Source: a virus
Strand: one strand, 5' to 3'
Length of the DNA stretch: 48,041 bases
Virus record (IMG/VR): IMGVR_UViG_3300037483_000592
Positions 7,513 to 22,527 of this stretch are shown here, piece after piece. The notes beneath the pieces are model-generated. The model made no database searches, had not been told where the DNA came from, and worked only from the letters and a program-made list of their open reading frames with translations. Each line of letters starts with the position of its first letter. Position 1 is the first letter of the stretch. The translations under genes and the position numbers were made by a program.

Positions 7513-10500
7513 CTATTCTCCCACGTTCAACTTGCCCACGATGCCCAGGATGCTCATAGGCAGCGGCTGGTCTTGCACGATCATGATGCTGCCTTCCTCG
7601 CTGAACTTGCCCCCGATGGTGACCCGCTGTGCCCCGGTTTTCAGGTCCACTGTATCATAGCGGATGGCCTTGAGGCTGGCCTCGTCCGATCCGATCTTGC
7701 CCCCGCGGCTCTTGGACAGCAGCAGGAGGGCCTCCGGGATCCTCACCGGGGAGAAGTGCCCCAGGCGCTGGGTCCACATCTTGCCCGTGTAGGGCAGACC
7801 GACGTGGATCTTGGCCGCGTACTGGTCGATGGTGATGGCGCCGGCGGAAACCACTTCCTGGCCCAGCTCCACCCCGTCAGCGTAGACCGCCACCGTCTTG
7901 GCCTCCAGGTGATCCAGGCCAGAGAGGGCCTTCACAACCTTCTCCAGGAGTCCGCCAGACACGTATGCGCCCATCTCCGCCCCATCTGCGAAGGTAACTC
8001 CATCGGTGAGGTACAACTCGAAGGTGTTGGTCGTCTTGCTCTTCACCATGTAGCTGTTGCCGTTGAGCTGGGTCATTCCAACAATCCCGGTGATCCGCAC
8101 GAACTCGTCGTTGACGAAGGGATGGCCGTTGGCGGTGACCATGACCGGGGAACGCGCTTTCAGATCATCGAAATAGATGTATTCGCCAGCTTCTGCCGTT
8201 GACTGGAGTAACAGCAGGGCCGTGGCTGCGGTGGCGGAAGCAGGAATCGTCATTTCTGCCTGGATCGATTCCCAGGAATCCGACAGGGAAGCCGCCTGGC
8301 TGATGTAGGTCCAGGCTCCGGAGTCATAGTAGCCAATCCGCAGTACGATTTCGCTGGGGCTCGGGCCTCCGGCAGGCGGCACGTAGAACCGGACCGTCAC
8401 CTTGTACTTCCTGCCGGCAACAAAACCGTGAAGATCCGTGGTCAAGGCGTTGTCCACGAAGTACTGCCCGCCCGTGCTTCCGGATGCGGAGGTCTTGGTG
8501 AGCTTCATCGAATAGCTGCCCTGATAGGCTCGATCGGCGCTTCGGGCGCAGGTGCAGCTATAATGCGATTCCGCATCGTCCTGCACGTGGGGAATGTCCA
8601 CCGACTCGCAATCGCCGTGATCCATCAGCGGATAGCTGGCCGCCCCGTTGACCAGGTCCTGCGTGGCGCTGTAGTCGTAGATCTTGCCGCAGTCCACGAA
8701 GTGGTAGTCCTTCTCGTCGGAGGGCCGGCGCTGGGGCTGCATGTACTCGATGTACTGCTTGGTGACGCCGTTGATCACCCGCTGCACGCACAGGTAGATG
8801 GTGTCCTCGCCGTTGGAGGCGTCGCCGGAGACGATGGCCAGGCTCTTGATGATGCCGTCCCGCGGATGCCGGCCCCAGGCCACGATGCTGTTGTTGCGGT
8901 CCAGGGTCAGGGAGGCGAGCTCGCCGGTCCCCAGGCGGGTCCACAGCATGGAGCTGGGGGAGCGCTGCCAGGCGAGCTCCTGGAAGCCCAGCTCGCCGAT
9001 ATGGTCCGCCAGCAGGGTTAGATCCGGGGAGACGTAGCCGCCCCGCTCCTGGCTGTACAGGAACTCCAGCAGCCGCTGGCCGCCCTTCTGCACGTAGAGC
9101 AGCGAGGCATTGGCGAGCACCGCGCAGATCTCCGCGCTGCCGTTGCCAGACACGCGGTCGGCAAAGACGTTGGATCCAGTGATGGGAGCATCCCCGCCGG
9201 TCAGAAGCCACTCGCCCAGTGTGGTGCCCACCACGACATTATGGGCCTTGGTGCGCATCCAGATGATCTCTTCCAGTACGTCAGAGGCGAGGCTGTATTC
9301 AAACCCGAAACTGGCATCCAAAGAATCGAGAGTGAAGTCCTGCGGCCATCCCGTGCGTGAGCCCCAAACTGTCCCATCTCTTGCGACTAGTAGTCTCTGA
9401 TCGTGGAACGTGAGAGCCTGCGGAAATCGCGATGCCCAAGGCACGGGTTCCCATCCGTTCACAACAAAAGCACAATCCTTGGAAGCGCCGGCAGGCAAAT
9501 CTGCCGGATTCGATAGCTTGGTGAATGTATCGCCCGCGTGTTTGTAGATCGTTACATAAGGCGTGGTGCCGGAAACAACGGCAAGATAGTTATCACCAGA
9601 AGAGAAGGCACATGATTGTCCAGCGGCTGGACCCGCGGTTGGATCTGCCAGTTTAATGAATGAATCGCCGCTACGCTTATAGATTAAAACATATGGCGTG
9701 GCATTATGAGCAACTGCGAGATACAGATTGTCCGACGAGAAACAGCATTGGTGCCCGCCATTAGGCAGACTTGCAGGATCGGATAGTTTGTTGAAGGCAT
9801 CCCCATCTCGCTTGTAAATGTAAATATACGGGGTAGTCAACGAAGTAATAGCCAAATAGTTTTCGTTGGGAGAAAAACAACCACCGGTCCCGCCGCCCGG
9901 AGGAATGGGTGAGGGATTCGGTAGCTTGGTGAAAATATCCCCATTCCGCTTGTAGATGGTTAGGAAGGGCGTGGTTCCATTCCCAGCCGCCAGATACGTG
10001 CCGCTATTAGAAAAGAAACAGCGTAAAGGAATACCCGGAGGAAGATCGGCAGGGTCAGACAGTTTTACAAAGGTATCGCCTGTACGCTTATAAATCAGAA
10101 TAAACGGAGTTGCGTCCGTGCAAACGGCAAGATATCTGGAATCCAGCGAAAAAGCACATCCCCTCACCAGAGCAGGAGGAAGATCTGTCGGATTTGCAAT
10201 TTTCTCATATTTCTCGCCACTTCTCTTGTAGATCGACAGGAAAGGCGTTGTGGCGTGTCCGACGGCGAGATAAACACCATCCTCTGAAAATGCACAAGCC
10301 TCGGCATTGCCAGTCGGCAAAGTAGTGGCATTCGGTCTTTTTGAGAAAGTATCTGAGCCATATGAATAGATAGTGGCAAATGGAGTCGTTGTATGCGCTA
10401 CCGCCAATGAAACATCTATGCCAGCATTCGATAGATTCCAAGCATAGTCGTTGAAAACCGCAAGGCGATGAAGCTGATAATCTGCATGAGCCAGGTAGGC

Positions 10501-10878
10501 TTTATTCTCCTGCTGCGCGATCTGTAGACCGAACAGATCGGCCGCCAGCCAGGGCGTGATGATCTCTAAGGGATTGCCCCCTTCAAGCAGCCGCGCCTTG
10601 TCCTTGTAGAACCGGCAGGCGAGCTCCGTGAGTTCGAGCACGTACTTCTCGCTCGAGGATTTCTCGAAGGGGATCAGCCGCACCGGGCTGGTGTTGGTCT
10701 TGGCCTCGCAAAGGAACACGGTGCCCGGGTCGAAGTCCAGGCCGCCCGCCGGGTGGAGGAGGAAGTTTTCCGATATGCGCAGGGTCTTGTCGTAGAGCGG
10801 GCTGTCGACCCGCGCCATGAAGCGGTCGGATACCTCGCCCCCCAGGAAACTGGTGTTGAACTTGCGTCCTTCGGCCAT
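7513..10878 (-). CDS. Mosaic tail tubular B/nozzle-like protein with inserted beta-propeller, CBM-like and FCCH-like domains (likely receptor binding)
   Basis: The protein is 1121 aa and sits directly downstream of the tubular-A-like gene. The core is interrupted by seven blade repeats (aa ~155-475), a jelly-roll-like module (aa ~750-908) and a small barrel (aa ~910-978). Confidence 0.75.
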   Translation of the reverse strand: MAEGRKFNTSFLGGEVSDRFMARVDSPLYDKTLRISENFLLHPAGGLDFDPGTVFLCEAKTNTSPVRLIPFEKSSSEKYVLELTELACRFYKDKARLLEGGNPLEIITPWLAADLFGLQIAQQENKAYLAHADYQLHRLAVFNDYAWNLSNAGIDVSLAVAHTTTPFATIYSYGSDTFSKRPNATTLPTGNAEACAFSEDGVYLAVGHATTPFLSIYKRSGEKYEKIANPTDLPPALVRGCAFSLDSRYLAVCTDATPFILIYKRTGDTFVKLSDPADLPPGIPLRCFFSNSGTYLAAGNGTTPFLTIYKRNGDIFTKLPNPSPIPPGGGTGGCFSPNENYLAITSLTTPYIYIYKRDGDAFNKLSDPASLPNGGHQCCFSSDNLYLAVAHNATPYVLIYKRSGDSFIKLADPTAGPAAGQSCAFSSGDNYLAVVSGTTPYVTIYKHAGDTFTKLSNPADLPAGASKDCAFVVNGWEPVPWASRFPQALTFHDQRLLVARDGTVWGSRTGWPQDFTLDSLDASFGFEYSLASDVLEEIIWMRTKAHNVVVGTTLGEWLLTGGDAPITGSNVFADRVSGNGSAEICAVLANASLLYVQKGGQRLLEFLYSQERGGYVSPDLTLLADHIGELGFQELAWQRSPSSMLWTRLGTGELASLTLDRNNSIVAWGRHPRDGIIKSLAIVSGDASNGEDTIYLCVQRVINGVTKQYIEYMQPQRRPSDEKDYHFVDCGKIYDYSATQDLVNGAASYPLMDHGDCESVDIPHVQDDAESHYSCTCARSADRAYQGSYSMKLTKTSASGSTGGQYFVDNALTTDLHGFVAGRKYKVTVRFYVPPAGGPSPSEIVLRIGYYDSGAWTYISQAASLSDSWESIQAEMTIPASATAATALLLLQSTAEAGEYIYFDDLKARSPVMVTANGHPFVNDEFVRITGIVGMTQLNGNSYMVKSKTTNTFELYLTDGVTFADGAEMGAYVSGGLLEKVVKALSGLDHLEAKTVAVYADGVELGQEVVSAGAITIDQYAAKIHVGLPYTGKMWTQRLGHFSPVRIPEALLLLSKSRGGKIGSDEASLKAIRYDTVDLKTGAQRVTIGGKFSEEGSIMIVQDQPLPMSILGIVGKLNVGE
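7945..8150 (-). other. E1 FCCH-like small beta-barrel domain (copy in nozzle protein)
   Basis: The sequence VTANGHPFVNDEFVRITGIVGMTQLNGNSYMVK...TFEL resembles the HGF..GD.V.F.EV.GM.ELNG motif of the ubiquitin-E1 FCCH domain. Confidence 0.55.
8155..8631 (-). other. Carbohydrate-binding-module-like (CBM4/9/22-type jelly roll) domain
   Basis: The sequence reads ...AYQGSYSMKLTKTSASGSTGGQYFVDN...GRKYKVTVRFYVP...EIVLRIGYYD...SWESIQAEMTIPA...GEYIYFDDLKA, a typical CBM-like pattern. Confidence 0.5.
9454..10416 (-). repeat. Seven tandem ~45-aa (~135-nt) blade repeats; predicted 7-bladed beta-propeller insert
   Basis: The unit YLAV..TTPF..IYKR.GD.F.KL..P..LP......CAFS occurs seven times. This DNA is visibly more AT-rich than its flanks. 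Confidence 0.75.
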
Positions 10879-10887
10879 GGCCTGCTC

Positions 10888-11694
10888 CTACATTTCCGTG
10901 ATCAGTTTCGAGCCCTTCTCCGGCTCCTGCCGGTAGCGCGCGTCCTGGCTGCGAGCCAGGGTCAGCAGCGCGCCGAACTCCTGGTCCAGCTCCTGCAGCT
11001 TGCGGGGGCTGGCCTTCAGGTCCGGGCAGGACACGGCCGCCAGGCGGGTGGCCACGGTATCAGCCAACAGCGGGGCGAAGAAGCGGAAATCCGCGAGGTA
11101 GCAGATATAGAGGATCTGCACCGTCTCGTCCGCGTAGTCGGTCAGCAGGATGTTGTGCTCTTCCACCCAGCTCCCGATGTCGATCCCGGTCTGGATCACC
11201 TTGATGCAGTCGTCCGGGAGCTTGAAGGCGTAGGAGTAGCCCCAGGCGGGGATCCGCCAGATCTTGCCGCCGGACGTCCAGACGCCAAAGCCGGTCCCGT
11301 CGACCTCCTCCGTGCCATCCTCGGTCCACAGCGCGAAGGTGTTGGCTGCCGCGGCCTTCACCATGTAGGAGTTGTCGTTGAGCTCGGTCATGCCGCCCAC
11401 GTCGGTGAAGGATACGATGTCGCCGTTCTCGAAGGCGTGCCCGGTAGCAGTGATCACCACGGGCTTGGCCTTCGTGGCGGCCTCCACCAGGTCGGTGTCT
11501 CGCTGCAGGACCGCTCTCTTGCGCGCGCACTTCCAGTCGGCGAGCTCCAGGACCTCATGCAGGACCTGCTCCCAGACCGCGTTGAAGGCGTTGGCTTCCT
11601 CGCAGTCCTCCGTGCCGGTGGACAGGCGTAGCGTGATCCCCAGCTTGGTCAGCGCCAGGTTGTAGATCCGGACCTTGGTTTCGTTCAGGTTCAT
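10888..11694 (-). CDS. Tail tubular protein A/adaptor-like (T7 gp11-type) with inserted FCCH-like barrel
   Basis: The protein is 268 aa. Its N-terminus (VRIYNLALTKLG...) and its position immediately upstream of the nozzle gene both fit this call. Confidence 0.6.
   Translation of the reverse strand: MNLNETKVRIYNLALTKLGITLRLSTGTEDCEEANAFNAVWEQVLHEVLELADWKCARKRAVLQRDTDLVEAATKAKPVVITATGHAFENGDIVSFTDVGGMTELNDNSYMVKAAAANTFALWTEDGTEEVDGTGFGVWTSGGKIWRIPAWGYSYAFKLPDDCIKVIQTGIDIGSWVEEHNILLTDYADETVQILYICYLADFRFFAPLLADTVATRLAAVSCPDLKASPRKLQELDQEFGALLTLARSQDARYRQEPEKGSKLITEM
11266..11466 (-). other. E1 FCCH-like small beta-barrel domain (copy in tubular A-like protein)
   Basis: ITATGHAFENGDIVSFTDVGGMTELNDNSYMVKAAAANTFAL is a paralogous motif to the one at 7945-8150. 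Confidence 0.55.
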
Positions 11695-11765: not shown

Positions 11766-12164
11766 TTAGTTCAGCACGATGCGGGCCAGCAGGCTCCCGG
11801 TCGTGTTCGCGGTCAGGGCGTACCAGTACAGCGAGATGTAGTCGTTCAGCCCCACATCCGGCAGCGGGACCTTGGCCACGATCCGCTGCGCCGGCGTGGT
11901 CGCCAGCGACAGCCGGGCCCCGGAGACGTCCGAGAAGATCTCCATCAGCTTGGTGTCCCCCGGGCTGGTGGAGCCGGTTTTCAGGTACAGCGAATAGATC
12001 TGCGCGTTGCTGGTGAACAGGCCGTCGGTCATCACCTCGATGAACTTCTTCTGGCCCACGCCCAGCTCGGTGATCTGGGCCTCCTTGAGCACCTTGCTCA
12101 AGGTCTTGCTGTTGGTCACCAGGTCGCCGGTCGCCGCGGTGAAAAACAGGTAAGCGTCGTCCAT
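11766..12164 (-). CDS. Possible capsid decoration/cement protein
   Basis: The protein is 132 aa with a beta-rich composition. It has a strong SD (AAGGAGGA) and lies directly downstream of the capsid gene. Confidence 0.45.
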   Translation of the reverse strand: MDDAYLFFTAATGDLVTNSKTLSKVLKEAQITELGVGQKKFIEVMTDGLFTSNAQIYSLYLKTGSTSPGDTKLMEIFSDVSGARLSLATTPAQRIVAKVPLPDVGLNDYISLYWYALTANTTGSLLARIVLN

Positions 12165-12193: not shown

Positions 12194-13240
12194 TTACGCC
12201 ACCACGGCTTCGGTGTTCTTGATCGAGTCCCAGCGGTGCACCGGGATATCGCCCTTGAACATCAGCACGCTGCCGCCGGAGTCCAGCCGCACCCAGCGGA
12301 GGATATGCTCGTCGCCGAGATCCTTGGCCTGCTGCTCCAGCTGGATGAACCCGGTCTTGTTGACGTACAGCACCGCCCCCGCGCTGTCCGGCAGGTTGTG
12401 GTACAGCTCGATGAGCTTGTCGATGTCGATCGGGTTGGCCGCTGCCGTGCCGATGTTGCACAGCCGCTGGTAGTAGGCCTCGTCCATGATGCGGATGCCG
12501 TAGCGGAAATAGAACTCGGTCACGTAGGCCAGCAGATCCTTGCTGTTGGCGCCGGCCACCAGGCGTTTCCCGAGGTCCTCCTCCTTGATGATCTCGGTCT
12601 TCCCGCCGGCCGGATAGAGCATCGAGCACTTTTCCGGCCCCCAGCCCATCAGGAGCGCGGAGGTGACAGCGTTCGAGCTGGCATCCCCGTTGTTGGCGAT
12701 GTTCCCGCCCGCAAGGGTGGCCCGCCGCGTGGCGAAGCCGTCGATGTAGTTGGGATTGGCCACCGACCTGGTGGCGTACAGGATCTTGTCGCCCAGCCAG
12801 ATGGCGCCGCCCCGCAGGTGCGCGTCGTCCTTGCGCCCGCGGAACTCCATGCCGCCGCCCGGCTTCGCCTTCTCCGCGATCAGGACCAGCTCCTGGTCCA
12901 CGATGTTGCGATCCTCGTACAGAGTGATCGGCTCGGTGAGCTGGTCGGTCTTGCCGGAGGTGGCGTCGATGCCGTTGTTGATGGAGCGCATGTCGCCGTT
13001 GGGGAGGTAGGCGTCGCGGCCGAAGATGTCTCCGGTCGCCTGGTTAGCCTCTTCCCAGTGGGCATCGGCAAAGATCGGCGTGCGCTTGTTGTTGGACAGG
13101 ATCTTGGCGACTTCAAGGAACCGCTCCCCGCCGGGGAGGGTTTCCTGCGCCAGATCCAGTAGGGTGGTTTTCCCTGCCAGGTCCACGTCCGCAAACCACT
13201 GGATGTGAACCTGGTCCAGCTGTTTCAGGAATGGATTCAT
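12194..13240 (-). CDS. Major capsid protein candidate
   Basis: The protein is 348 aa from ATG 13240, with SD GAGGAG 7 nt upstream. The track start at 13255 is a TTG inside a hairpin. The gene is followed by a small strongly translated gene and a hairpin terminator. Size and composition fit an HK97-fold capsid protein. Confidence 0.65.
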   Translation of the reverse strand: MNPFLKQLDQVHIQWFADVDLAGKTTLLDLAQETLPGGERFLEVAKILSNNKRTPIFADAHWEEANQATGDIFGRDAYLPNGDMRSINNGIDATSGKTDQLTEPITLYEDRNIVDQELVLIAEKAKPGGGMEFRGRKDDAHLRGGAIWLGDKILYATRSVANPNYIDGFATRRATLAGGNIANNGDASSNAVTSALLMGWGPEKCSMLYPAGGKTEIIKEEDLGKRLVAGANSKDLLAYVTEFYFRYGIRIMDEAYYQRLCNIGTAAANPIDIDKLIELYHNLPDSAGAVLYVNKTGFIQLEQQAKDLGDEHILRWVRLDSGGSVLMFKGDIPVHRWDSIKNTEAVVA

Positions 13241-13249
13241 AGCCTTGCT

Positions 13250-13268
13250 CCTCAAACCAAGTTTGAGG
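13250..13268 (-). promoter_or_regulatory. Hairpin overlapping the capsid-gene Shine-Dalgarno
   Basis: The inverted repeat CCTCAAAC-nnn-GTTTGAGG is 8 bp. On the minus strand its 3' arm contains the first 4 nt of the SD GAGGAG (13248-13253). Confidence 0.4.
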
Positions 13269-13354
13269 AACGTCCGTCTGCAACAGAGGTTGCCCGTTGA
13301 CCGCCGCTTCCGATCCTCCCAGTCAGGTCGGCAGAAACGACTGTCGCAGGTTGG

Positions 13355-14659
13355 CTATGCTATCGCTTCGGGTTGCCCCTTTGACGCGGTATGACCTACG
13401 GCCTCCGCGTCTACGTTCTGCCTTACAGTATGTGAGCCATCGCCTCGCTCGTCAAGGTCCGGAATCAGCACGCAGGTCTGCCGCGGGTAGTCCGGATCCC
13501 GGATGAACTTCATGCTCATCTTGGCGCTGGAAATGCTCGCCGCGGCCGCCCGCTCCTGTTCCCGGTTCACATCATCGAACACCCAGGCAGTCCCCGGATG
13601 CCCCCAGCGGATGTACGCGGCCAGGGCTGGCGGGCTGGCCCTGCCCTCCACCGGACCGTCCACGATCACCAGGTCGTAGGGCGCAAGCGCCTCGATGAAT
13701 GGCGGAACGGGGTGATACCATTCGTGCGCATCCAGGGCGGCGCCAAAGGTCGTCTCCGCCGGCAATCCCGCTTCCCGCAGATTGGCTAGGTGCTTTTCGC
13801 CGTAGGGGCCCGCGTGATCCAGCGATAGGTATCGACTGCCATGCTCCAGGCACCAGGGCAGGATGGCGAAAGAGCTGGCCCCGGGCCCGAGCTCCAGGAC
13901 CTTCTTGGGCTTGCGCTGTTCGAGCAGCTGCAGGATGGCGTCGATCGCCGGCCGGCTCATGCGCCAGGCGTGATCGTAGCGGTCGATGAACTTCTCCAGC
14001 AGGTTCACGGGCGGGCCGGGGGCGCGGACCACCATCCGGATGTCGTGCCCGATGCGGACCGCGGGATGGGCCCAGATCTTGAAGCCCTTCGCCCGGATCC
14101 TCCGGCACCAGTCGATGTCCTCCCCCGGGAGGATCACGCGGCCGTCCTCTTCGTAGGGCACTTCTTGGAACCACGGGAAATCGAGGGTTTCGAACACGCC
14201 GCGGCGCACCAGCAGGAAGGCGAAGCCGCAGAAATGCCAGTCGCGCATGGGCGCGTTCTGGGGTAGCGCGTTGAGGTTCACGTACTTGCTCAGGGGCCCC
14301 TCGACCAGGCCGAAGGCTCCGGCAGCTCCCTCCGCGTTCATCGGGACCATGCCCGTGATGATGTCCTTGTCCGCCTCCAACAGGCGGAAGAAGTCCTGCG
14401 GGGTGTACACGCTGTCGCTGTCGATCCACATCATGAAGTCGTACGGACGGCCTCCGAAGGGCTTGGCTTCCTTCCGGGGGCCTGAGACGCCTTCCTCCAG
14501 GATGTTGTTGCGACAGTGGGCGACGCTCGAATTGTAGCCTCGAATGACTTCCAGCTTCAGGCCGTGCTCGGGCCGGGAGGCTTCCCGGACCAGTGCATCC
14601 CAGCTCATGGCGGCCTGCAGCGTGGGGGCCCCAGGCAGGCAGAAGATGATGTGCTTCAT
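13355..14659 (-). CDS. Glycosyltransferase (GT-A fold) fused to class I SAM-dependent methyltransferase
   Basis: The N-terminal half has the DXD-type motif MWIDSDSVYTP and GEDIDWCRRIRAKGFKIWAHP. The C-terminal half has SAM motif I (VLELGPGASS) and LVIVDGP. ATG 14659 is preferred over the track start at 14692. Confidence 0.7.
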   Translation of the reverse strand: MKHIIFCLPGAPTLQAAMSWDALVREASRPEHGLKLEVIRGYNSSVAHCRNNILEEGVSGPRKEAKPFGGRPYDFMMWIDSDSVYTPQDFFRLLEADKDIITGMVPMNAEGAAGAFGLVEGPLSKYVNLNALPQNAPMRDWHFCGFAFLLVRRGVFETLDFPWFQEVPYEEDGRVILPGEDIDWCRRIRAKGFKIWAHPAVRIGHDIRMVVRAPGPPVNLLEKFIDRYDHAWRMSRPAIDAILQLLEQRKPKKVLELGPGASSFAILPWCLEHGSRYLSLDHAGPYGEKHLANLREAGLPAETTFGAALDAHEWYHPVPPFIEALAPYDLVIVDGPVEGRASPPALAAYIRWGHPGTAWVFDDVNREQERAAAASISSAKMSMKFIRDPDYPRQTCVLIPDLDERGDGSHTVRQNVDAEAVGHTASKGQPEAIA

Positions 14660-14673
14660 CCGAGCGCTCGGAT
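14658..14673. repeat. 16-bp perfect palindrome ATCCGAGCGCTCGGAT (copy 1)
   Basis: It spans the gap between the stop of the 416-aa gene and the ATG of the GT-MT gene. An identical 16-mer lies at 34456-34471. Confidence 0.9.
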
Positions 14674-15923
14674 CAGCCAGGGATCTTCTCAAGGGCCATG
14701 TGAGCCGAGCCGACCCCTCCGGAAACCGCCGCGATGGCCCGGATCTTCAGGTCCGTCCGCTCGGCGAAGGTGAACTCGTACTCCGGCCGGTGGTCCCGGT
14801 CCGAGCCGGCCGCCAGGGTGAAGAGCATCTGGTAGACCCAGATCCCGCCGTTGGTGCGGGTCAGCAGGTAGTAGGTGACGATCTGCGTCCGGGCCGTCAG
14901 GTACAGCTGCTTGAGCTTGTAGCTGCCGGCGCCCACGGGAATGGTGTAGAACCCGCTCATGGTGCGGTTCATGCCGATGGCGATCCATCCGACCAGCTTG
15001 GTCAGATCGGAGGGCACGCCGGCGGTCTGGGTGACCACGGAATCGGCGATGTAGATGATGCCGGCATTCTTCCCGCCGGACCCCACCGTGAGGACCTCCG
15101 CGCCCAGAAGCCGCAGGTAGGCCTTGGTGCTCACCACGGCCGTCTGGCCGTTGAGCGTGACGTCCTCGGTCTGCAGCTTCCCGTCGGCGTCCAGGCCGAT
15201 CAGGCGCTGGGTACGGGCCCCGGTCCCGGCCGCTGCGTCCGCCGCGCTGCCGGAAGAAACATCCAGGGTGACGGCAGAGGCGAAGGGCGCCCAGTCCTGC
15301 GAGGCGTCCCAGAGATCTTCCTCCGCGTTGGCGATGGCCCCGTTGAAGCCGAGGACCAGGACCTTCCGACCGACCAGCTGATTGAGTAGGTTCATTGGTT
15401 TTCCTCCAATCTCGAATCCAGGCTCGACATATGGCTGAAACGTTGGGATCCCGAAAGCTTCCTCGGAAGCGATCCCGACAAAGTCCACGTTGAGAGAAAT
15501 GGCTGCATTCCCGAATGCCTCTGCCGACAGTATACCCTGAAGGGCCAGGGTCAGTTCAAGAATCGGATTTCCGAATGCCTCTTCGCTCGGGATCCCGACA
15601 AACCCCAGGCTCAGGGCAAAAGATGGAGTCCCGAAGGCCTCCGCGCTGGCTACGCCTCCCAGGTCGCTGATGTCGATCGGGGGAAGCGCTGGGGCGATCG
15701 TCGGGGTGCCGAACGCCTCTTCGCTGGGGATCCCCGCGTGCTGCACGTCCAGGCTGACAGAAGGAGTGCCGAAGGCCTCCGCGCTGGCGATCCCGCTGGG
15801 GCTGACGTCCAGGGAAATCGCCGGGGACCCGAAAGCCTCCCCGCTGGCAATCGCGCCCAGGTTGCTGATGTCATAGGCTGCGGCGCCTGCGGTGGGTTGC
15901 CCAAAGAAGATCCGGCGCCCCAA
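14673..15923 (-). CDS. Fibre/appendage-like virion protein with N-terminal EAFG repeats and C-terminal beta-rich domain
   Basis: The protein is 416 aa. It has seven S-x-EAFG-x-P repeats within aa 12-170. Confidence 0.6.
   Translation of the reverse strand: MGRRIFFGQPTAGAAAYDISNLGAIASGEAFGSPAISLDVSPSGIASAEAFGTPSVSLDVQHAGIPSEEAFGTPTIAPALPPIDISDLGGVASAEAFGTPSFALSLGFVGIPSEEAFGNPILELTLALQGILSAEAFGNAAISLNVDFVGIASEEAFGIPTFQPYVEPGFEIGGKPMNLLNQLVGRKVLVLGFNGAIANAEEDLWDASQDWAPFASAVTLDVSSGSAADAAAGTGARTQRLIGLDADGKLQTEDVTLNGQTAVVSTKAYLRLLGAEVLTVGSGGKNAGIIYIADSVVTQTAGVPSDLTKLVGWIAIGMNRTMSGFYTIPVGAGSYKLKQLYLTARTQIVTYYLLTRTNGGIWVYQMLFTLAAGSDRDHRPEYEFTFAERTDLKIRAIAAVSGGVGSAHMALEKIPG
15413..15890 (-). repeat. 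Seven degenerate tandem coding repeats (unit ~19-27 aa, core SxEAFGxP)
   Basis: I counted seven EAFG occurrences in the translated N-terminus. Confidence 0.85.
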
Positions 15924-15933
15924 GGGCCACCCC

Positions 15934-16248
15934 TTATTGCGTGGTCGGGATGCTCAGGAAGAAGTCGCACCACTCCTTCGGGGCGGTCTGGTCGATGCCG
16001 ACGATGGTGATCACGTCGCCGTTCATCTGCGCTGCGGTCATGTTGAGGAGCACGGCCGTTCCGGCAGCAGGGCTCACCGTGGGCAAGTTGGTCAGGTTGT
16101 TGAAGCCTGCGCCATCGATGTCGACCTTGAAGTCGCCAGCGGCCAGCGTCGGGGCCGCCTTGAGCGAGCCGGGGTTGTTGCAGTCCTCCAGCCCGATACG
16201 GATCTGAAAGTCCTCGTTCTTTTTCGGAGGATTATAAGGAGCCGCCAC
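15934..16248 (-). CDS. Hypothetical virion-module protein
   Basis: This is a 104-aa ORF with protein-like composition, tightly packed in the structural array. Confidence 0.65.
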   Translation of the reverse strand: MAAPYNPPKKNEDFQIRIGLEDCNNPGSLKAAPTLAAGDFKVDIDGAGFNNLTNLPTVSPAAGTAVLLNMTAAQMNGDVITIVGIDQTAPKEWCDFFLSIPTTQ

Positions 16249-16249
16249 T

Positions 16250-16918
16250 TCACACCCCCTGCAGGACGGTCGGTCGCCTGCGCGTGAACTTCGTCACCAG
16301 GTCATTGCTGAAAACCAGCATCGGCGTGCAGGCCGTGGTGTCGGCGCTCTGAGGGAAGTTTTGCGCCCCGGTGGCCATCGGGTCCCCCACGGCGAAAGAG
16401 TGGTTGTGGTTGTCCGTCGCGCTGTTGGTCGGTAGGCCGTCCGCCCCGAACTCCAGCACCAGGCGCCAGGGCACGCTCAGAGTGACCAGAGAACCCGCCC
16501 GCGTCTCGCAGTAGCCGGTAATCGCCGTAGCCATTTCTCCGATTGCCGACTTGAACCATGCAACGATGTTTCCCAGGTTGGAGCTTCCATCTGCTGGAGT
16601 TGCATACAGCTTCCACGCCACAAACAGGTTGTTCGTGGCCACCGCTTCCAAGCACCGGATTCCGAAGGTAATCTGCTGGGCTACCACCGCCTGCGGAGGC
16701 AGGATGTCGGACACGTACTGGGAGTGCATCGAAGCCACGTCCACCAGGTGGTCCGCGCCATCGGGCGCGTAGGCTACCGTCGACAGCGAGCTGTTGATCC
16801 GGTCCAGGACCATCTTGAGCCGCTGGCTGCCGTTGACGTGTCCATTCCAGTCTGTCGCGCTGGGCGTAGGGGAAACAGCGGAGGCTCCGGTCGAGGGAAG
16901 CCAGAAAACGGTGCCCAT
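16250..16918 (-). CDS. Hypothetical virion-module protein (beta-rich)
   Basis: This is a 222-aa ORF, tightly packed in the structural array. Confidence 0.65.
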   Translation of the reverse strand: MGTVFWLPSTGASAVSPTPSATDWNGHVNGSQRLKMVLDRINSSLSTVAYAPDGADHLVDVASMHSQYVSDILPPQAVVAQQITFGIRCLEAVATNNLFVAWKLYATPADGSSNLGNIVAWFKSAIGEMATAITGYCETRAGSLVTLSVPWRLVLEFGADGLPTNSATDNHNHSFAVGDPMATGAQNFPQSADTTACTPMLVFSNDLVTKFTRRRPTVLQGV

Positions 16919-16926
16919 CCAGCCCC

Positions 16927-17337
16927 CTACAGCTTGAAGATCTTATTCGCCCCGTTGTCCCACAGCAGGTTGATCGTCTGCCCGGCTCCCGGGGTGAATG
17001 GCAGGCCGGTGGCGGTGTCCAGGTAGCAGATCAGCCGCGCGGAGCCGTCGGCGGCGTTGTACTTGTACAGGACCACGGCAATCGACAGCGTCGCCGCGGT
17101 GGCCACCAGGCTGGAATCTGCCGCGTCTGCGATGCCGTCGGTGACGGCCTTGCCGCTCAACGCCGCGCTGCGGCCGTTGTCGTAGGAGGCCGGCGTCAGA
17201 TCGCTAACGAACCTGTGGGCCGCGGACCAGGTGTAACCGGTTTTCAGCAGAATCGCCCGGATGTCGTCGGTGTCCCAGTCAATCGACCCATCCAGGAATC
17301 CTTCCCGCCCGGGATTGTAAAGCGCATTTCCTGCCAT
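16927..17337 (-). CDS. Hypothetical virion-module protein
   Basis: This is a 136-aa ORF with protein-like composition. Confidence 0.65.
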   Translation of the reverse strand: MAGNALYNPGREGFLDGSIDWDTDDIRAILLKTGYTWSAAHRFVSDLTPASYDNGRSAALSGKAVTDGIADAADSSLVATAATLSIAVVLYKYNAADGSARLICYLDTATGLPFTPGAGQTINLLWDNGANKIFKL

Positions 17338-17346
17338 GCTGGCCTC

Positions 17347-17664
17347 CTACTGTTCCGAACCGTCGATGCCGCCCAGTCCGCTGATGTTCAGCGGGGGCAG
17401 CTCGCTGGACGGCTTCGGCTTGCTCCGACCGAACCATCGCCAGATCCCCCGCGGCGCCAGGGGCTTGGCGCGCTGCGCCTGTTCCATGATGGCCGCGACC
17501 TTGCGCAGGTAGACGAGGGCCTCGGACCCCTGGCTCTGGCGGGCCTGCTTCAGGTACTCCACCGCCCGCCGCTTGTCCTCGCCGTCCAGGCCCGAGAGAT
17601 CCGCCCGGTAGACCTCCACGGTGAACCGGATCAACGTCAGCTTGCCCGCACTTGAGATCTTCAT
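17347..17664 (-). CDS. Hypothetical protein; C-terminus shares the PP-x-x-IS-x-LGG motif with the 416-aa fibre-like protein
   Basis: The protein is 105 aa. It has an ATGA overlap with the upstream gene. Its C-terminus ...LPPLNISGLGGIDGSEQ resembles LPPIDISDLGGVAS in 14673..15923. Confidence 0.6.
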   Translation of the reverse strand: MKISSAGKLTLIRFTVEVYRADLSGLDGEDKRRAVEYLKQARQSQGSEALVYLRKVAAIMEQAQRAKPLAPRGIWRWFGRSKPKPSSELPPLNISGLGGIDGSEQ

Positions 17665-17837
17665 TCTCCGTCCCCCTCAAAGAGCTTGTTCCGCTCTTCC
17701 AGCTCCTTGTACTTGGTCGAGAGCGCGCGGTGCGACTGGATCACCTTGCGTAGGTCCTCGCAGGCATTCACCCAGCCGTAGCTGACGTACTCCGGGATCT
17801 TCACCTTCTCGATGAAGTCCAGGTCCTCGGGCGTCAT
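17661..17837 (-). CDS. Small hypothetical protein (58 aa)
   Basis: Only the last 58 aa of track ORF 17661..18752 look protein-like (MTPEDLDFIEKVKIPEY...). ATG 17837 forms an ATGA overlap with the scaffold stop. Confidence 0.55.
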   Translation of the reverse strand: MTPEDLDFIEKVKIPEYVSYGWVNACEDLRKVIQSHRALSTKYKELEERNKLFEGDGE

Positions 17838-18796
17838 TTCTTCGCCACCTCTGCGGCCTGCTTGGGAAATCGCTTGGCCAGCCGATCCAGGGCGGCCTGG
17901 ACAACCGCAGGCGCACCACCGGCCGGCGTGCCGCCGAGCTCCGGGCTCATCGGATAGCGCGACTTTAGCGCCGCGGCCTTCTTCTCCTGCGGAGTGGGCT
18001 GAGCGGGGCCAGCCTTTCCGGGCACCAGGTGGCCCTCCCCGATCGCGTTGCCCATGGTGTAGAACGCCTCGATGATCTCCGGATCGTTCTCCAGGCCGCG
18101 CTTGGCCAGCTTGGCCACCAGCTTGTCCTTGCCGAAGGTGAGGATCGCCCGGTTGGCGATGTCCTCGCGGGCGGCGTAATCGCCCTTCCACGACTCCTTC
18201 AGCGCCTTCAGGCCGGCCTCCCGCTCGCTGGCGTACTGATCGGCCGACGCCTTCTGCTGGGCGAAGATGCTCTCCCGGATGAAGCCGCTCATCAGCTTGG
18301 CCGCGTCCTTGCCCAGGCCGCCCTTGAGCGCCAGGGCCCGCAGCGCGTCGTCCTGCGCCTTCATGTAGGCCGCCAGGTTGTCCCGCAGATCCTTGTGCTC
18401 GTCGCCGGCCAGGTGATCGGGGAACTTGAGCTCCTCGAACTCGTACTCCTCCGGCTTGGTGGGGGCCGGGGCCAGCTTGGCCTGCAGCTCGGTGGACCGA
18501 GCCTCCGCGGCGTACATGCGGTCCAGCACGCCATCCCAGCTCTTCAGCGGTTTCTCGCCGCCGAGGATGTCCTTGAGAAACTTCGGATCGCGCTTGTACT
18601 TGTCGCTGGCCTGCGCGAAAAAGGTGCCGTCCGCCTTCAGCTCCGGATCTGGCGGAGGGGGCGGCGGCGGGCCGGCGGGAGGTGTAGGTGCTGGCCCAGC
18701 AGGCGGCGCTGCCGGCGGGGCTACGGGGGGCACGGGAGGATCTCCGAACCACTGCAGGTGCAGGTCGAAGGGTCCCATCAGGTTCTGTCGTTCCAT
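17834..18796 (-). CDS. Scaffolding protein candidate with a Pro-rich N-terminal tract
   Basis: The protein is 320 aa, highly helical and charged with a K/E/A-rich composition. It lies downstream of the portal. Confidence 0.6.
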   Translation of the reverse strand: MERQNLMGPFDLHLQWFGDPPVPPVAPPAAPPAGPAPTPPAGPPPPPPPDPELKADGTFFAQASDKYKRDPKFLKDILGGEKPLKSWDGVLDRMYAAEARSTELQAKLAPAPTKPEEYEFEELKFPDHLAGDEHKDLRDNLAAYMKAQDDALRALALKGGLGKDAAKLMSGFIRESIFAQQKASADQYASEREAGLKALKESWKGDYAAREDIANRAILTFGKDKLVAKLAKRGLENDPEIIEAFYTMGNAIGEGHLVPGKAGPAQPTPQEKKAAALKSRYPMSPELGGTPAGGAPAVVQAALDRLAKRFPKQAAEVAKK

Positions 18797-19047: not shown

Positions 19048-19328
19048 TGCGTTTTCTCCCTCAGCGGCGCGGCGCCTGGCGCTTCCACCAGCCTCCGCGT
19101 CAGCTCGAACAGATTGGATTCTCGGACGAGACCCGTCCGCTTCAACACCCGTCTCGCAAGGTTCTGCCTCGTCACCAGCTGGGGATCCGGATCGATCTCA
19201 TCCCAGAGGTGGCACTCATCATGCACCAGGTGGGCCAGGACCAGCGGCCCGATCGCCGTCTGCGTGAAAAGGACCTTGTACAGCTCATCGATCTCTTCTT
19301 CGGGGAGCTGCCGGCCCAGGTACTCCAT
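19044..19328 (-). CDS. Hypothetical protein
   Basis: This is a 94-aa ORF that starts at the portal stop. Confidence 0.6.
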   Translation of the reverse strand: MEYLGRQLPEEEIDELYKVLFTQTAIGPLVLAHLVHDECHLWDEIDPDPQLVTRQNLARRVLKRTGLVRESNLFELTRRLVEAPGAAPLREKTQ

Positions 19329-21037
19329 CAGGCGGCCCCGCTCATCATGGCTTCCATCGGGCTGCCCTTCTGCGGCCGCGTGCTCATCTTCGCGCCGGCC
19401 TCAGCTCCCGCCTTGGCCAACTCGGCCTGCTGCATGGCCTGCTGCAGCTTGGCCCGCTGCTCCCGGATCTTGGCCACTTCCTCGTCGGTGCGCACATCCT
19501 TCTCCGGGACCCCGTGCGCGTTGGCCAGGTCCTCCACGATCTCGTCCCAGTTGGGCCGGTCGAGCACGGCGTCTTGTGAGGGCACGGCGGCGACATCCTC
19601 CATGAACCCCCGGATGCCCTGGCGCTTGAACGCTCGCTGCTGGGCTACGGCCAGGGGCCCGATGAACTGAACTTTCATCCCGTACTTGGCCCTCCGCGGA
19701 TTGTCCGCGATCCAGTCCATGATCACCTGCGGGGGGGCCGGCAGCCGGCCCGCGCGGCCCGAGATAGATGCAGTCCGGCCGATGATCCGCTCCGGGCCCT
19801 CGGAGAGATACTGATTGACCAACGGTGCCAGCACCACAGCACGTTCGCCGATGGCTTCCTCGATTTCGGTAGCTGTCTGCTGCTTGCGCTCCATGAGGAT
19901 CCGCAGGAAGATGTCGTAGAAGTAATGCCGCTTCACGTGCTCTTCGAGGGTCTCCAAGACCTGGAAGCCCGCCGGCAGCTGAATGCCTCCCTGGTGGATC
20001 GGGTAGATGCTTCCGGCCGGGAATTGCTTCTCGTAGAAGTTCCATGCGCCCGGGTTCTTGGAGATCTGTCCGCGACGCTCGATTGGCGCGTCCATGGCCG
20101 GGTCGACCAGGCGCTGGGCACCCAGGATGTTGGCCATCGCCATGCCGCTGGCCATCTTCACATCGCGGATCGCGTTGCTGCCAGGCGAGCGGCCGTACTC
20201 CTCGCCACCATCCTGGATGCAGCGGGCGGTAATCACGGGCATTTCATCGTAGCCTTCCTCGCGCAGCATCCGGCTCATTTCGATGTCGACGTAGAAGGAC
20301 GCAATCGGCTTGTGCAGGTAGTGCAACAGGCCCTCGATCCGCTCTTCCCGCGGGACCAGCGCCCACAAGCAGCGGACCTCATCCAGCGGCCGGAGCCTGG
20401 CCTGCTTGGCGCGCTTCTCTCCCACTGCCTCTTCTCCGAACCAGTTCACCAGGTTGCGCAGGGTGATGTAGTACTCCCGCAGCTCGATGTCGATCTCCCC
20501 CTGCTCGTTTTCCCCGATGAAGATCTCCACCGGATGAAAGACCTTGTAGTAGGGGTACTGCTTGCCAGGCTGGTCGCCAGGGTAGCAGCTCGCCGTGCCC
20601 ACGCTGCCCAGGTCCCGCAGGAAGATGCCCAGCGCCTTGTACAGCCCGCCGCCCTGGAACTCGTCGTACATCTGCTCTTCATAGTCCTGGAGGTACTGCT
20701 TGACCTCGCTGACTTCGTTGAGCTCCTTGGCGCGCATCTTGTATCGCTGCCACCGGGAGCCCGGAGAGGCGGTATTGCCCAGGATCCCATCCGCCCAGAC
20801 GTGCAGACAGTGAGTCCCGATATCGTCGTAGACGTTGGCGTGGGTGGTCATGCCCTTCTGGTCGACGCCACGCAGCAGGATCTCCCGATCGGGCAGGATG
20901 TACTCGGCGACTTCGCGCCAGCGCTCTTCATGGCGCTTGCGCCGGGCCCGGTGCATCTCGAGTAGCCGGAGCAGCTCCTTGACTACCTCGATCTGCTTGA
21001 GGCTGTTCTCTTTGGCGAGGACGGTTGAATCAGCCAT
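19328..21037 (-). CDS. Portal (head-tail connector) protein
   Basis: The protein is 569 aa and lies immediately downstream of, and overlapping, the TerL gene. Its size and position are typical of podovirus portals. Confidence 0.75.
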   Translation of the reverse strand: MADSTVLAKENSLKQIEVVKELLRLLEMHRARRKRHEERWREVAEYILPDREILLRGVDQKGMTTHANVYDDIGTHCLHVWADGILGNTASPGSRWQRYKMRAKELNEVSEVKQYLQDYEEQMYDEFQGGGLYKALGIFLRDLGSVGTASCYPGDQPGKQYPYYKVFHPVEIFIGENEQGEIDIELREYYITLRNLVNWFGEEAVGEKRAKQARLRPLDEVRCLWALVPREERIEGLLHYLHKPIASFYVDIEMSRMLREEGYDEMPVITARCIQDGGEEYGRSPGSNAIRDVKMASGMAMANILGAQRLVDPAMDAPIERRGQISKNPGAWNFYEKQFPAGSIYPIHQGGIQLPAGFQVLETLEEHVKRHYFYDIFLRILMERKQQTATEIEEAIGERAVVLAPLVNQYLSEGPERIIGRTASISGRAGRLPAPPQVIMDWIADNPRRAKYGMKVQFIGPLAVAQQRAFKRQGIRGFMEDVAAVPSQDAVLDRPNWDEIVEDLANAHGVPEKDVRTDEEVAKIREQRAKLQQAMQQAELAKAGAEAGAKMSTRPQKGSPMEAMMSGAA

Positions 21038-22527
21038 TACCTGCCACCTCCGGGGCCCCAGGTGAAAGGATCGTAGCCTGTACCTTCAAGGGGATTATAG
21101 TGGTCGCGGTAGGCATAATTCAATAGCGGATCCCGAGCATCCGGACGCACGTCCGCCTTGAACAGCCGCACCATCAGGTATTGCAGCCCATCATGGACGT
21201 GCGAGTACTTGTTCTTCAGCACGTTCGGCAGGAACTCTCCCTGCAGGCTCTTGTTTGGCGGGTAGCAGTAGCCACCCAGAAAGCCGTTGATCAGGCGGGT
21301 GCAGCTGGGGTCGATGAGCACGCCATCGATGCGGCCCAGCTGCTGGTCCACCGATTCTACTCGGGCCTGGAAGTTCTGCTCGGACGGCGCCACGTCCACG
21401 CCGCAGTCATGCATCAGCTCGGCGTTGCTGGTGAAGCCGCCTTCTTTCTTTGGATATTGCGCGTTGGCCGCCGGATCCCCCCAGTGGGTGACTTCTTTGG
21501 CCCCGGGGAATGCTAGGTTGAGCTGGTGCACAACATAGTGGGTGAAATCCACAATGCCCATTCGGTCGCTGTAGTACTCGCGCAGAATATGGATCTGCCG
21601 CGGGCCCGGGATCTGAGCAACCACACAGGCCGGGCAGTTGCCGCTATTGTCCCAGCCGACGAATAATTCCCCGCCGGTCCAGGGCAGCGGATCTTCTTCG
21701 GGATCATCGGGAGTCTTGGCGACATGGTATTGCCGGCGGAAGTTGTTGTAGACCAAGCGCCCGACGATAATCACCCCGGGCTTGCCATCGATGTACATGT
21801 CGATCCAGTCCGGGTTTCCGAAATAGAGTAACCGCATGTCCTCGTAGTAGCCGGGCGGCAGGTTCTTGACGTTCTCGCGTGGAGGCTGCCAGTAGCCTCG
21901 GTGGCCAGGCAGCGGGTCCTTGGACGGCAGCGGGCCCGGGGGCGGTTGCTGCCAGGCGAAATCCGTGTAAGTGCTGTCCTCTACATCCGGCGGGTTGGTC
22001 GTCTCAATTCCGTACTTCTCGGGGCACTTCTTGGGGTAGCGGCCGATGCGGTTTTCCAGCATCAACTTGATCTGCTTGGGGACCTCGATCGACTCGTCAA
22101 TCCAGTACCCGGTGATCTCTAGGGACTTCAGTTTCTTGATGTGCTCCGGCCGGTCGCAGGAGCGAAACAGGATCTCCGCTTCGTAGCCGTCGCCACGGAT
22201 GATAAGTTCGAACTTGCTTTCCGACCAGTCCTTGCCGCTGAAGGCCTCCGGGAACCACTCCTTGACGGTGCGCAGCGTGGTGTCGCGCAGCTCGACGTAG
22301 GTATTGCGCACCACCACCCAGCGGGTCTTCTTGATCCCGTATTCCGCCAGCAGGTGCGCCGGTAGGAAGACGCCGACCTCCAGGGCTGCCGCGGTGGTCT
22401 TGCCGGATCCCACGGGCCCCACGATGCAGCGGATGACAGTGCTGTCCTCGTGGAACAGCTTCAGGGTCGGCAGCGGCTCGTAGTTGATGCGGTCCTGAGT
22501 GATTGCCTCGGCCGTGACGTTGGACAT
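21037..22527 (-). CDS. terL: Terminase large subunit
   Basis: The protein is 496 aa with an N-terminal Walker A (GPVGSGKT). It is followed by the portal gene. Confidence 0.85.
   Translation of the reverse strand: MSNVTAEAITQDRINYEPLPTLKLFHEDSTVIRCIVGPVGSGKTTAAALEVGVFLPAHLLAEYGIKKTRWVVVRNTYVELRDTTLRTVKEWFPEAFSGKDWSESKFELIIRGDGYEAEILFRSCDRPEHIKKLKSLEITGYWIDESIEVPKQIKLMLENRIGRYPKKCPEKYGIETTNPPDVEDSTYTDFAWQQPPPGPLPSKDPLPGHRGYWQPPRENVKNLPPGYYEDMRLLYFGNPDWIDMYIDGKPGVIIVGRLVYNNFRRQYHVAKTPDDPEEDPLPWTGGELFVGWDNSGNCPACVVAQIPGPRQIHILREYYSDRMGIVDFTHYVVHQLNLAFPGAKEVTHWGDPAANAQYPKKEGGFTSNAELMHDCGVDVAPSEQNFQARVESVDQQLGRIDGVLIDPSCTRLINGFLGGYCYPPNKSLQGEFLPNVLKNKYSHVHDGLQYLMVRLFKADVRPDARDPLLNYAYRDHYNPLEGTGYDPFTWGPGGGR

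Follow-up and report, generated by a model that had tools for sequence, protein, structure and literature searches.

A core head-module glycosyltransferase, often fused to a methyltransferase, as a candidate virion-modifying enzyme of uncultured BPP-1/epsilon15-like podophages

The stretch of viral DNA analysed here (48,041 nt; IMG/VR record IMGVR_UViG_3300037483_000592), hereafter the window, represents a temperate, BPP-1/BcepC6B/epsilon15-type podophage with nearly all of its genes on the minus strand. Genes for the large terminase (21037–22527) and portal (19328–21037) are followed by one for a scaffold-like protein (17834–18796, minus; phrog_458, phrog_3742 and synteny), which marks the upstream edge of the slot considered below, and by a small ORF (17688–17837). 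Between this ORF and the gene of interest lies a five-gene cassette (14673–17664, minus) that is specific to the window, being absent from L001 and other relatives. The last gene of the cassette (14673–15923, minus) encodes a fibre-like protein whose N-terminal part matches the repeats of phrog_13352, 'minor tail protein' (E 2e-26), and whose C-terminal domain has a homologue between the terminase and portal genes of MW202879; Tandem Repeats Finder detected no DNA-level repeats in this gene, so that the repeats exist at the protein level only. Next comes the gene of interest (13355–14659, minus), which encodes a glycosyltransferase (GT) joined to a methyltransferase (MT) and is referred to as GT::MT, and then, after a gap of 114 nt from its stop to the next ATG, the gene for a major capsid protein of the GP7 or epsilon15/BPP-1 type (12194–13240, minus; PF20911, E 4e-41; NF045672, MCP_gp7_epsi_15). 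A 132-aa protein (11766–12164, minus), conserved in all loci of the lineage, occupies the slot of the BPP-1 cement protein Bbp16, as judged by its position in the BcepC6B gp09/Bbp16 slot; relatives carry a 217-aa gene downstream of it that the window lacks. Farther 3' are tail proteins with E1_FCCH domains, a T7 gp14-like internal protein and a giant ORF that extends beyond the window start, and an integrase gene lies at 41268–42452. A nucleotide search of a phage collection with the window gave no meaningful match, and a genome-contig scan for a host yielded just two MAG contigs, from bins labelled Saccharibacteria and Anaerolineae, both probably mis-binned phage contigs.

The GT::MT gene encodes 434 aa plus a stop codon, running from an ATG at 14659 to a TAG at 13355–13357 on the minus strand, and has fifteen full-length homologues at 50–82% identity. 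An alternative form extended to a TTG would have 445 aa, but every homologue begins with MK(H/R)I(I/V)FCLPG, and we therefore rejected the longer form. The G+C content by codon position (0.66/0.46/0.83) was like that of the neighbouring minus-strand genes. Among six fusion homologues, identity at third codon positions was 0.58 in the GT and 0.47 in the MT, far below the 0.73–0.83 found at first and second positions, which indicates purifying selection on the protein in both domains. All four motifs quoted in an earlier, sequence-only reading were present in the translation: WIDSDS at aa 78–83, GEDIDWCRRIRAKGF at aa 179–193, VLELGPGASS at aa 254–263 and LVIVDGP at aa 330–336. The same reading had described a single ORF combining a GT-A half with a class I SAM methyltransferase half, and this description held, the first half being supported by a structure model and the second by Pfam and by fold. 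Profile searches bore it out only in part: the C-terminal half scored above the Pfam threshold for Methyltransf_24, whereas the N-terminal half missed the gathering threshold of Pfam GT2 (PF00535; 15.3 against 23.3 bits).

The N-terminal half is confidently modelled as a GT-A glycosyltransferase domain (aa 1–212; 14024–14659, minus), with support from phrog_1574 (E 8e-31; annotated 'unknown function'), AF2 and Foldseek. The AF2 model of aa 1–215, built from a 72-sequence alignment, reached a pLDDT of 93.2 and a pTM of 0.90 and formed a single Rossmann-like alpha/beta/alpha GT-A fold, and its top Foldseek matches in PDB and BFVD were all GT-A enzymes. The domain includes the WIDSDS segment with its DxD residues D80 and D82 (nt 14411–14428, minus), E180-D181 (nt 14081–14125, minus) and H205 (nt 14042–14050, minus); in the 72-sequence family alignment D80, D82, D181 and H205 were invariant and E180 nearly so. 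The model thus describes a minimal GT-A enzyme in which the DxD motif, His205 and the predicted catalytic Asp181 are all intact. Current Pfam and NCBIfam models do not capture this family, which is widespread among phages and giant viruses and comprises more than 2,500 sequence clusters without Pfam or NCBIfam annotation.

The best PDB structural match of the GT model was STIV A197 (PDB 2C0N; Foldseek E 2.7e-9), followed by the Mimivirus R699 collagen glucosyltransferase, GlfT2, human COLGALT1, the LH3 GT domain and polypeptide GalNAc-transferases. A197 was also reached with the GT family profile (E 6.4e-5), the sole significant profile match in PDB, in an alignment that sets the DxD opposite 'LDEDVV' and D181 opposite A197 D151; by this sequence comparison A197 is the nearest relative of the GT with a solved structure. 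A197 is essential and has been proposed to glycosylate the STIV major capsid protein, and its D151E mutation delays STIV replication (PMC10551542); R699 is a collagen glucosyltransferase (PMC9546862). Like the GT, A197 is a virus-encoded, minimal GT-A protein of about 200 aa with an aligned DxD, but A197 has only about 14% sequence identity to the GT, lacks a methyltransferase and comes from an archaeal virus whose capsid is of the double-jelly-roll type; its acceptor, too, is a proposed one. The likeness of the GT to protein-directed GTs is generic to the GT-A fold.

The C-terminal domain (aa 226–400; 13460–13984, minus) was assigned to the class I SAM methyltransferases by PF13578 and Foldseek. 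Pfam Methyltransf_24 (PF13578) matched over its full model, positions 1–105, at 28.8 bits against a gathering cutoff of 26.3 (E 2.3e-6), and a profile of the fusion family found B. subtilis TrmR/YrrM among its matches to PDB sequences. The domain had a pLDDT of about 90 in the AF2 model of the full protein, and its top Foldseek matches were TrmR (the best), COMT-like enzymes and bacterial O-methyltransferases (E 5e-10 to 1e-7). Motif I, ELGPGASS (nt 13871–13900, minus), D334-G-P (nt 13652–13672, minus) and W-x-F-D362-D363 (nt 13559–13582, minus) lie within it, and the residues invariant across the MT family, stand-alone relatives included, were E256-x-G258-P-G260-x-S-S, D281-H282, D334-G-P and W-x-x-D362-D363. 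As candidates for the divalent-metal triad (D...D-N) of COMT/CCoAOMT enzymes, the alignment showed D334, D362 and D363, all invariant, but the Asn position was N or H across the family, whose motif reads DD(T/V)(H/N)R. With the COMT/CCoAOMT/TrmR-like enzymes (Methyltransf_24; COG4122 YrrM) the MT has in common its fold, SAM motif I, an acidic residue following strand 2 and an Asp following strand 4; it differs in that its metal triad is only partly recognisable and that it is fused to a GT. Fold models and profile together identified the domain as a SAM-dependent methyltransferase of the COMT/TrmR-like kind whose SAM-binding motif is intact. Searches with this domain alone added little: a homologue search returned a single fragment, and a viral-contig scan with the MT alignment found two further distant, uninformative loci. 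TrmR is a tRNA methyltransferase, and this best structural match, along with a weak PADLOC match of the MT domain to mad2, would fit an enzyme that acts on some other soluble target (a host protein, RNA or small molecule) in takeover or anti-defence and sits beside the capsid gene by historical accident, though the MT matches amount to generic class I similarity.

The position of the gene among its relatives is the main evidence that this analysis adds. We delimited a lineage of 13 distinct genomes, all uncultured, with capsid proteins at least 54% identical. The GT lay between the scaffold and capsid genes, directly upstream of the latter, in all 13. Full-length fusion homologues occurred in this phage lineage only, forming one 50%-identity cluster among 1.84 billion proteins, and in every contig examined the fusion gene sat between the block of scaffold gene and small ORF and the capsid gene. 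Stand-alone GTs, 43–57% identical to the N-terminal half, filled the same slot in more divergent members. GT identity followed capsid identity closely (Spearman 0.92, n=12). The sequence-only reading had placed the gene between fibre-like and capsid genes; this is true of the window, and the link to the capsid gene extends across the lineage, but the fibre adjacency is found in the window only, because the fibre gene belongs to the five-gene insertion. The closest cultured phages share only 28–30% capsid-protein identity, and a GT is missing from the cultured BcepC6B and vB_E332, in which the capsid gene directly follows the scaffold gene; scaffold and capsid genes likewise abut, with no GT, in three distant GP7-type loci (22–24% identity). 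The lineage thus shares the PF20911 capsid, portal, cement-protein slot and E1_FCCH tail proteins of the BPP-1/BcepC6B/epsilon15 head modules, but where the cultured phages run from scaffold to capsid, it inserts a GT, with or without an MT, and a conserved leader some 170 nt long. Within this lineage the GT belongs to the core of the head module, is inherited vertically and keeps a fixed place upstream of the capsid gene.

The methyltransferase was distributed differently. Seven of the 13 genomes carried the GT::Methyltransf_24 fusion and four the GT alone, while two types, the L009-type genomes and L019, encoded a Methyltransf_11 protein in a gene of its own, adjacent to the GT on its upstream side. 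BLASTP found no similarity between the fused Methyltransf_24 and the separate Methyltransf_11 proteins. The GT and MT domains have separate histories: identity was 96% for the GT and 66% for the MT of L001, against 54% and 72%, respectively, for those of L002. On these sequence comparisons, the methyltransferase is an accessory partner that became associated with the GT on two occasions, in one case as the Methyltransf_24 fusion and in the other as a separate Methyltransf_11 gene.

Strict conservation of position down to 54% capsid identity and the co-divergence of the GT with the capsid gene argue against a soluble target unrelated to the virion, and late structural timing would be ill-suited to takeover. 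Distant members of the GT family do favour it: at 37% identity or less they occurred in cyanophage variable islands (one near a prolyl-4-hydroxylase gene), in a RecA/DnaB replication module, on a contig of a giant virus and ahead of a terminase gene, and so include early, replication or variable regions of other viruses. These unrelated contexts mean that the GT fold does not dictate a capsid substrate, and they call for caution. Weighing both sides, we regard a non-virion soluble target as unlikely. The member between RecA and DnaB could also point to glycosylation and methylation of phage DNA or its precursors as a defence against restriction, and DNA hypermodification is described as frequent among phage GTs in the passage of PMC12619734 that cites Pyle et al. 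2024. The gene is located in the head module, however, and not in the replication module. Pfam found no hydroxymethylase, thymidylate-synthase-like or other base-hypermodification gene, nor any family that would supply hmC, hmU or a similar base for glycosylation, among the head and tail genes and 36 further window ORFs, which together cover the window apart from a few small ORFs and 24.9–27.0 kb. The T4 DNA glucosyltransferases, moreover, are of the GT-B type. Modification of DNA is, in our view, highly improbable.

The enzyme could instead modify a host envelope glycan or its cytoplasmic lipid-linked precursor, leading to seroconversion, to superinfection exclusion in lysogens, or to late masking of receptors so that progeny escape debris. 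The phage is temperate, as its integrase indicates, and belongs to the epsilon15/BPP-1 group, of which epsilon15 is a classic seroconverting phage; pairs of a GT and a methyltransferase are common in O-antigen and capsule pathways, and the NCBIfam matches of the GT, although weak, were to polysaccharide GTs. Genes of the Gtr or moron type are characterised by membrane association, a location near int/att or an own promoter, and variable presence, and GT::MT shows none of these. The protein had no transmembrane segment (maximum 19-residue hydropathy 1.08), and its gene is embedded in the late head operon, some 27 kb away from the integrase gene. We found no promoter-like site 5' of it in the window, and in relatives the stop codon of the preceding ORF and the start of the GT overlap. 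Its presence as a fixed core head-module gene in all 13 genomes is likewise unlike that of a variable moron. Lack of a transmembrane segment, of an own promoter and of DNA-hypermodification genes argues against seroconversion and DNA glycosylation alike. We consider seroconversion less likely than virion glycosylation, and a host glycan as the acceptor to be distinctly unlikely.

The late cytoplasmic head-module setting, the lack of an own promoter and the upstream overlap in relatives favour a virion protein as the acceptor, as do structural neighbours that are mostly protein-directed and the lack of both base-hypermodification genes and nucleotide-sugar genes, the latter having been sought by Pfam in the scanned window ORFs. 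Tentatively, and with a little less than even confidence, we suggest that a virion protein, most likely the capsid or the cement protein, is glycosylated late and in the cytoplasm and is then O-methylated. GT::MT would be a soluble enzyme, expressed late and encoded within the head-gene block, whose GT domain would transfer one sugar from a host nucleotide-sugar onto a virion protein, most likely the major capsid or the cement protein, the products of the next two genes. The MT domain would then O-methylate that sugar, leaving a capped, methylated monosaccharide or short glycan on the particle. A methylated sugar as the product is suggested by the combination of a core GT with a twice-joined MT, by the fusion itself and by the existence of FkbM-MT::GT fusions elsewhere. 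Methylation would be an optional extra, because the GT acquired two unrelated methyltransferases in separate branches and is without one in others. The case for virion glycosylation is one of analogy, drawn from gene position and structural neighbours, and gives partial support to the proposal of the sequence-only reading that virion proteins are decorated with a methylated sugar. In the capsid protein we found no Ser/Thr-rich extension, its conserved end being ...SIKNTEAVVA. An acceptor-like capsid insertion was considered and rejected: only a 'KAKPGGG' loop sets the lineage apart from BcepC6B, and it is absent from L012, which has the GT.

Two virus-encoded systems offer parallels in architecture and in function. 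PBCV-1 A064R, of GT-GT-MT architecture, assembles the capsid glycan and methylates it, an activity shown biochemically (PMC7826918). Like GT::MT, it combines a virus-encoded GT and a sugar O-methyltransferase in one cytoplasmic polypeptide, a comparison of architecture alone in which the activity of GT::MT is a predicted one; A064R differs in having two GT domains, against one GT and one MT here, and in belonging to a eukaryotic giant virus. The second system is that of the mycobacteriophages, in which virion glycosylation shields virions from antibodies and which are, to our knowledge, the only tailed phages so far shown to glycosylate their particles with their own enzymes. According to summaries of Freeman et al. 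2023, mycobacteriophage-encoded GTs, namely Che8 gp108–110, Corndog gp38 and those of Myrna, modify capsid and tail-tube proteins (PMC12363180, PMC11256854). These phages have actinobacterial hosts, and the sugar is accepted by a C-terminal extension for which the capsid protein here has no counterpart; the Che8 GT genes are found towards the right genome end, in contrast to the head-module location of GT::MT. No mycobacteriophage was present among 101 tblastn records obtained with GT::MT, and hhalign gave probabilities of only 0.07% for Che8 gp110 and 0.3% for gp109, which places GT::MT outside the Che8-type GT families. By analogy, we class GT::MT with virus-encoded glycosylation machinery associated with capsid genes. 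It is possible, though on balance doubtful, that this uncultured BPP-1/epsilon15-like lineage glycosylates its HK97-fold capsid with a core head-module GT from an unannotated, A197-related family, that the sugar is methyl-capped by twice independently recruited methyltransferases, and that this is the first case of tailed-phage capsid glycosylation outside Actinobacteria. If so, phage capsid glycan coats would be more widespread than the mycobacteriophage cases suggest, with independent origins and different enzymes.

The 3' end of the gene showed a different kind of conservation from the enzyme domains. The C-terminal tail (aa 401–434; 13358–13459, minus) was predicted to be disordered (pLDDT about 29) but looks conserved in the protein alignment, with identity at the DNA level equal across the three codon positions. 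About 165 nt, comprising the final ~50 nt of the ORF and the sequence up to the capsid ATG, were near-invariant, while the enzymes themselves are only 62–82% identical. The tail-coding region contains a predicted sigma-70-like promoter facing the capsid gene (TTGACG-17-CATACT; 13427–13455, minus), with the same hexamers and 17-nt spacing in the window as in L001, L002 and L003 but a spacer of variable sequence. The capsid gene thus apparently has its own promoter, so that co-transcription with GT::MT is unnecessary. We considered whether the conserved tail peptide ASKGQPEAIA might be a capsid-targeting or cargo signal; this was ruled out by the nucleotide-level conservation, by a frameshift within the tail of L002, by the lack of a tail in P0015 and by the disorder predicted by AF2. 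Conservation at the nucleotide level, together with the promoter and leader located there, points to a DNA or RNA signal and not a peptide signal. A scan of metagenome contigs with the 17-mer TTGMAGACGGAMGYTCC returned 120 stretches, all of them chance matches with no capsid or GT.

Alignments and RNAalifold revealed a conserved, structured leader of the capsid gene (13238–13420, minus), recognisable in all genomes of the lineage, including those with a stand-alone GT, and with no family match in an Rfam search. It comprises a 5' hairpin (13383–13411, minus), a hairpin over the Shine-Dalgarno sequence (13250–13268, minus) and a long-range helix between CATAGCC at 13353–13359, which includes the GT::MT stop TAG, and GGCTATG at 13238–13244, which includes the capsid ATG. 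RNAalifold paired CATAGCC with GGCUAUG, and one position of this helix showed a C-G to U-A covariation between clades. In the window the leader folded with an MFE of -82.9 kcal/mol (z-score -4.9), with the Shine-Dalgarno sequence and the start codon both paired. Expression of the GT may also be coupled to the capsid gene through this long-range RNA helix between the GT stop region and the capsid start codon. The structured leader that overlaps the end of the enzyme gene is a candidate regulatory element, separate from the enzyme itself.

The gene encoding the fusion of a GT-A glycosyltransferase (GT) to a Methyltransf_24 methyltransferase (MT) was mosaic by domain when the window copy (13355-14659, minus strand) was compared with those at two homologous loci, L001 (9425-10759) and L002 (10001-11308). 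The GT domain of L001 was 96% identical to that of the window and its MT domain 66%, while for L002 the corresponding values were 54% and 72%. These unequal identities point to recombination near the inter-domain linker of the fusion gene. Directly upstream, we detected a five-gene cassette (14673-17664, minus strand; products of 105, 136, 222, 104 and 416 aa) inserted between the small post-scaffold ORF (17688-17837) and the fusion gene. The cassette was seen in the window only; relatives lack it and have a 217-aa gene instead, located after the cement-like gene (L001 12351-13004). The 416-aa cassette protein is fibre-like, with N-terminal repeats that resemble mycobacteriophage minor tail proteins, and a homologue of its C-terminal domain is located between the terminase and portal genes in MW202879.

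The 3' end of the fusion ORF harbours a promoter-like site, TTGACG-17-CATACT, which is conserved. Downstream of it comes a ~170-nt leader of the capsid gene that is kept throughout the lineage of uncultured phages sharing this gene order (site and leader together, 13238-13455, minus strand). In the predicted fold of the leader (z-score of -4.9), a long-range helix pairs CATAGCC, in the segment with the stop codon of the fusion gene, with GGCUAUG at the capsid start codon, and one position of this helix covaries from C-G to U-A between clades. The Shine-Dalgarno sequence of the capsid gene likewise lies within a predicted hairpin. No Rfam family matched the capsid-gene leader. At four of the homologous loci (L011 and L018-L020), an additional terminator-like hairpin with a T-run was present inside the leader.

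The N-terminal domain of the fusion protein belongs to a large and nearly entirely unannotated family (P0020-P0168 among homologous proteins; L007, L008 and L026-L028 among loci), comprising 2,536 clusters at 50% identity with E-values up to 1e-3. Most of its members are stand-alone proteins of ~215 aa, and in some the domain is joined with TPR repeats or an FkbM methyltransferase. Members were found in cyanomyophages, other phages and one giant-virus contig; one cyanomyophage member sits near a prolyl-4-hydroxylase gene. In phages of the L009 type, a further member of this GT family, a divergent paralogue (L009 1814-2476; 31% identity, weak GT2 Pfam matches), is encoded upstream of the terminase gene. 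It is present in addition to the head-module GT and the separate Methyltransf_11 gene, which hints at a glycan with more than one sugar in these phages.

Elsewhere in the window, Pfam detected one or several copies of the E1_FCCH domain, from ubiquitin-activating enzyme E1, in each of two tail proteins (10888-11694 and 7513-10878, both minus strand), and this domain is kept in relatives. The ORF at 1-~5241 (minus strand) is giant, spanning 1,766 aa or more and extending beyond the window start; its L001 counterpart encodes a 2,650-aa product, and it probably specifies an internal or ejection protein. Two short lineage contigs, L024 (CAZWDF010000053.1) and L025 (JALOOJ010000093.1), had been assigned to MAGs that bear the labels Candidatus Saccharibacteria and Anaerolineae; both are probably mis-binned phage DNA, so these labels are a poor guide to the host of the lineage.
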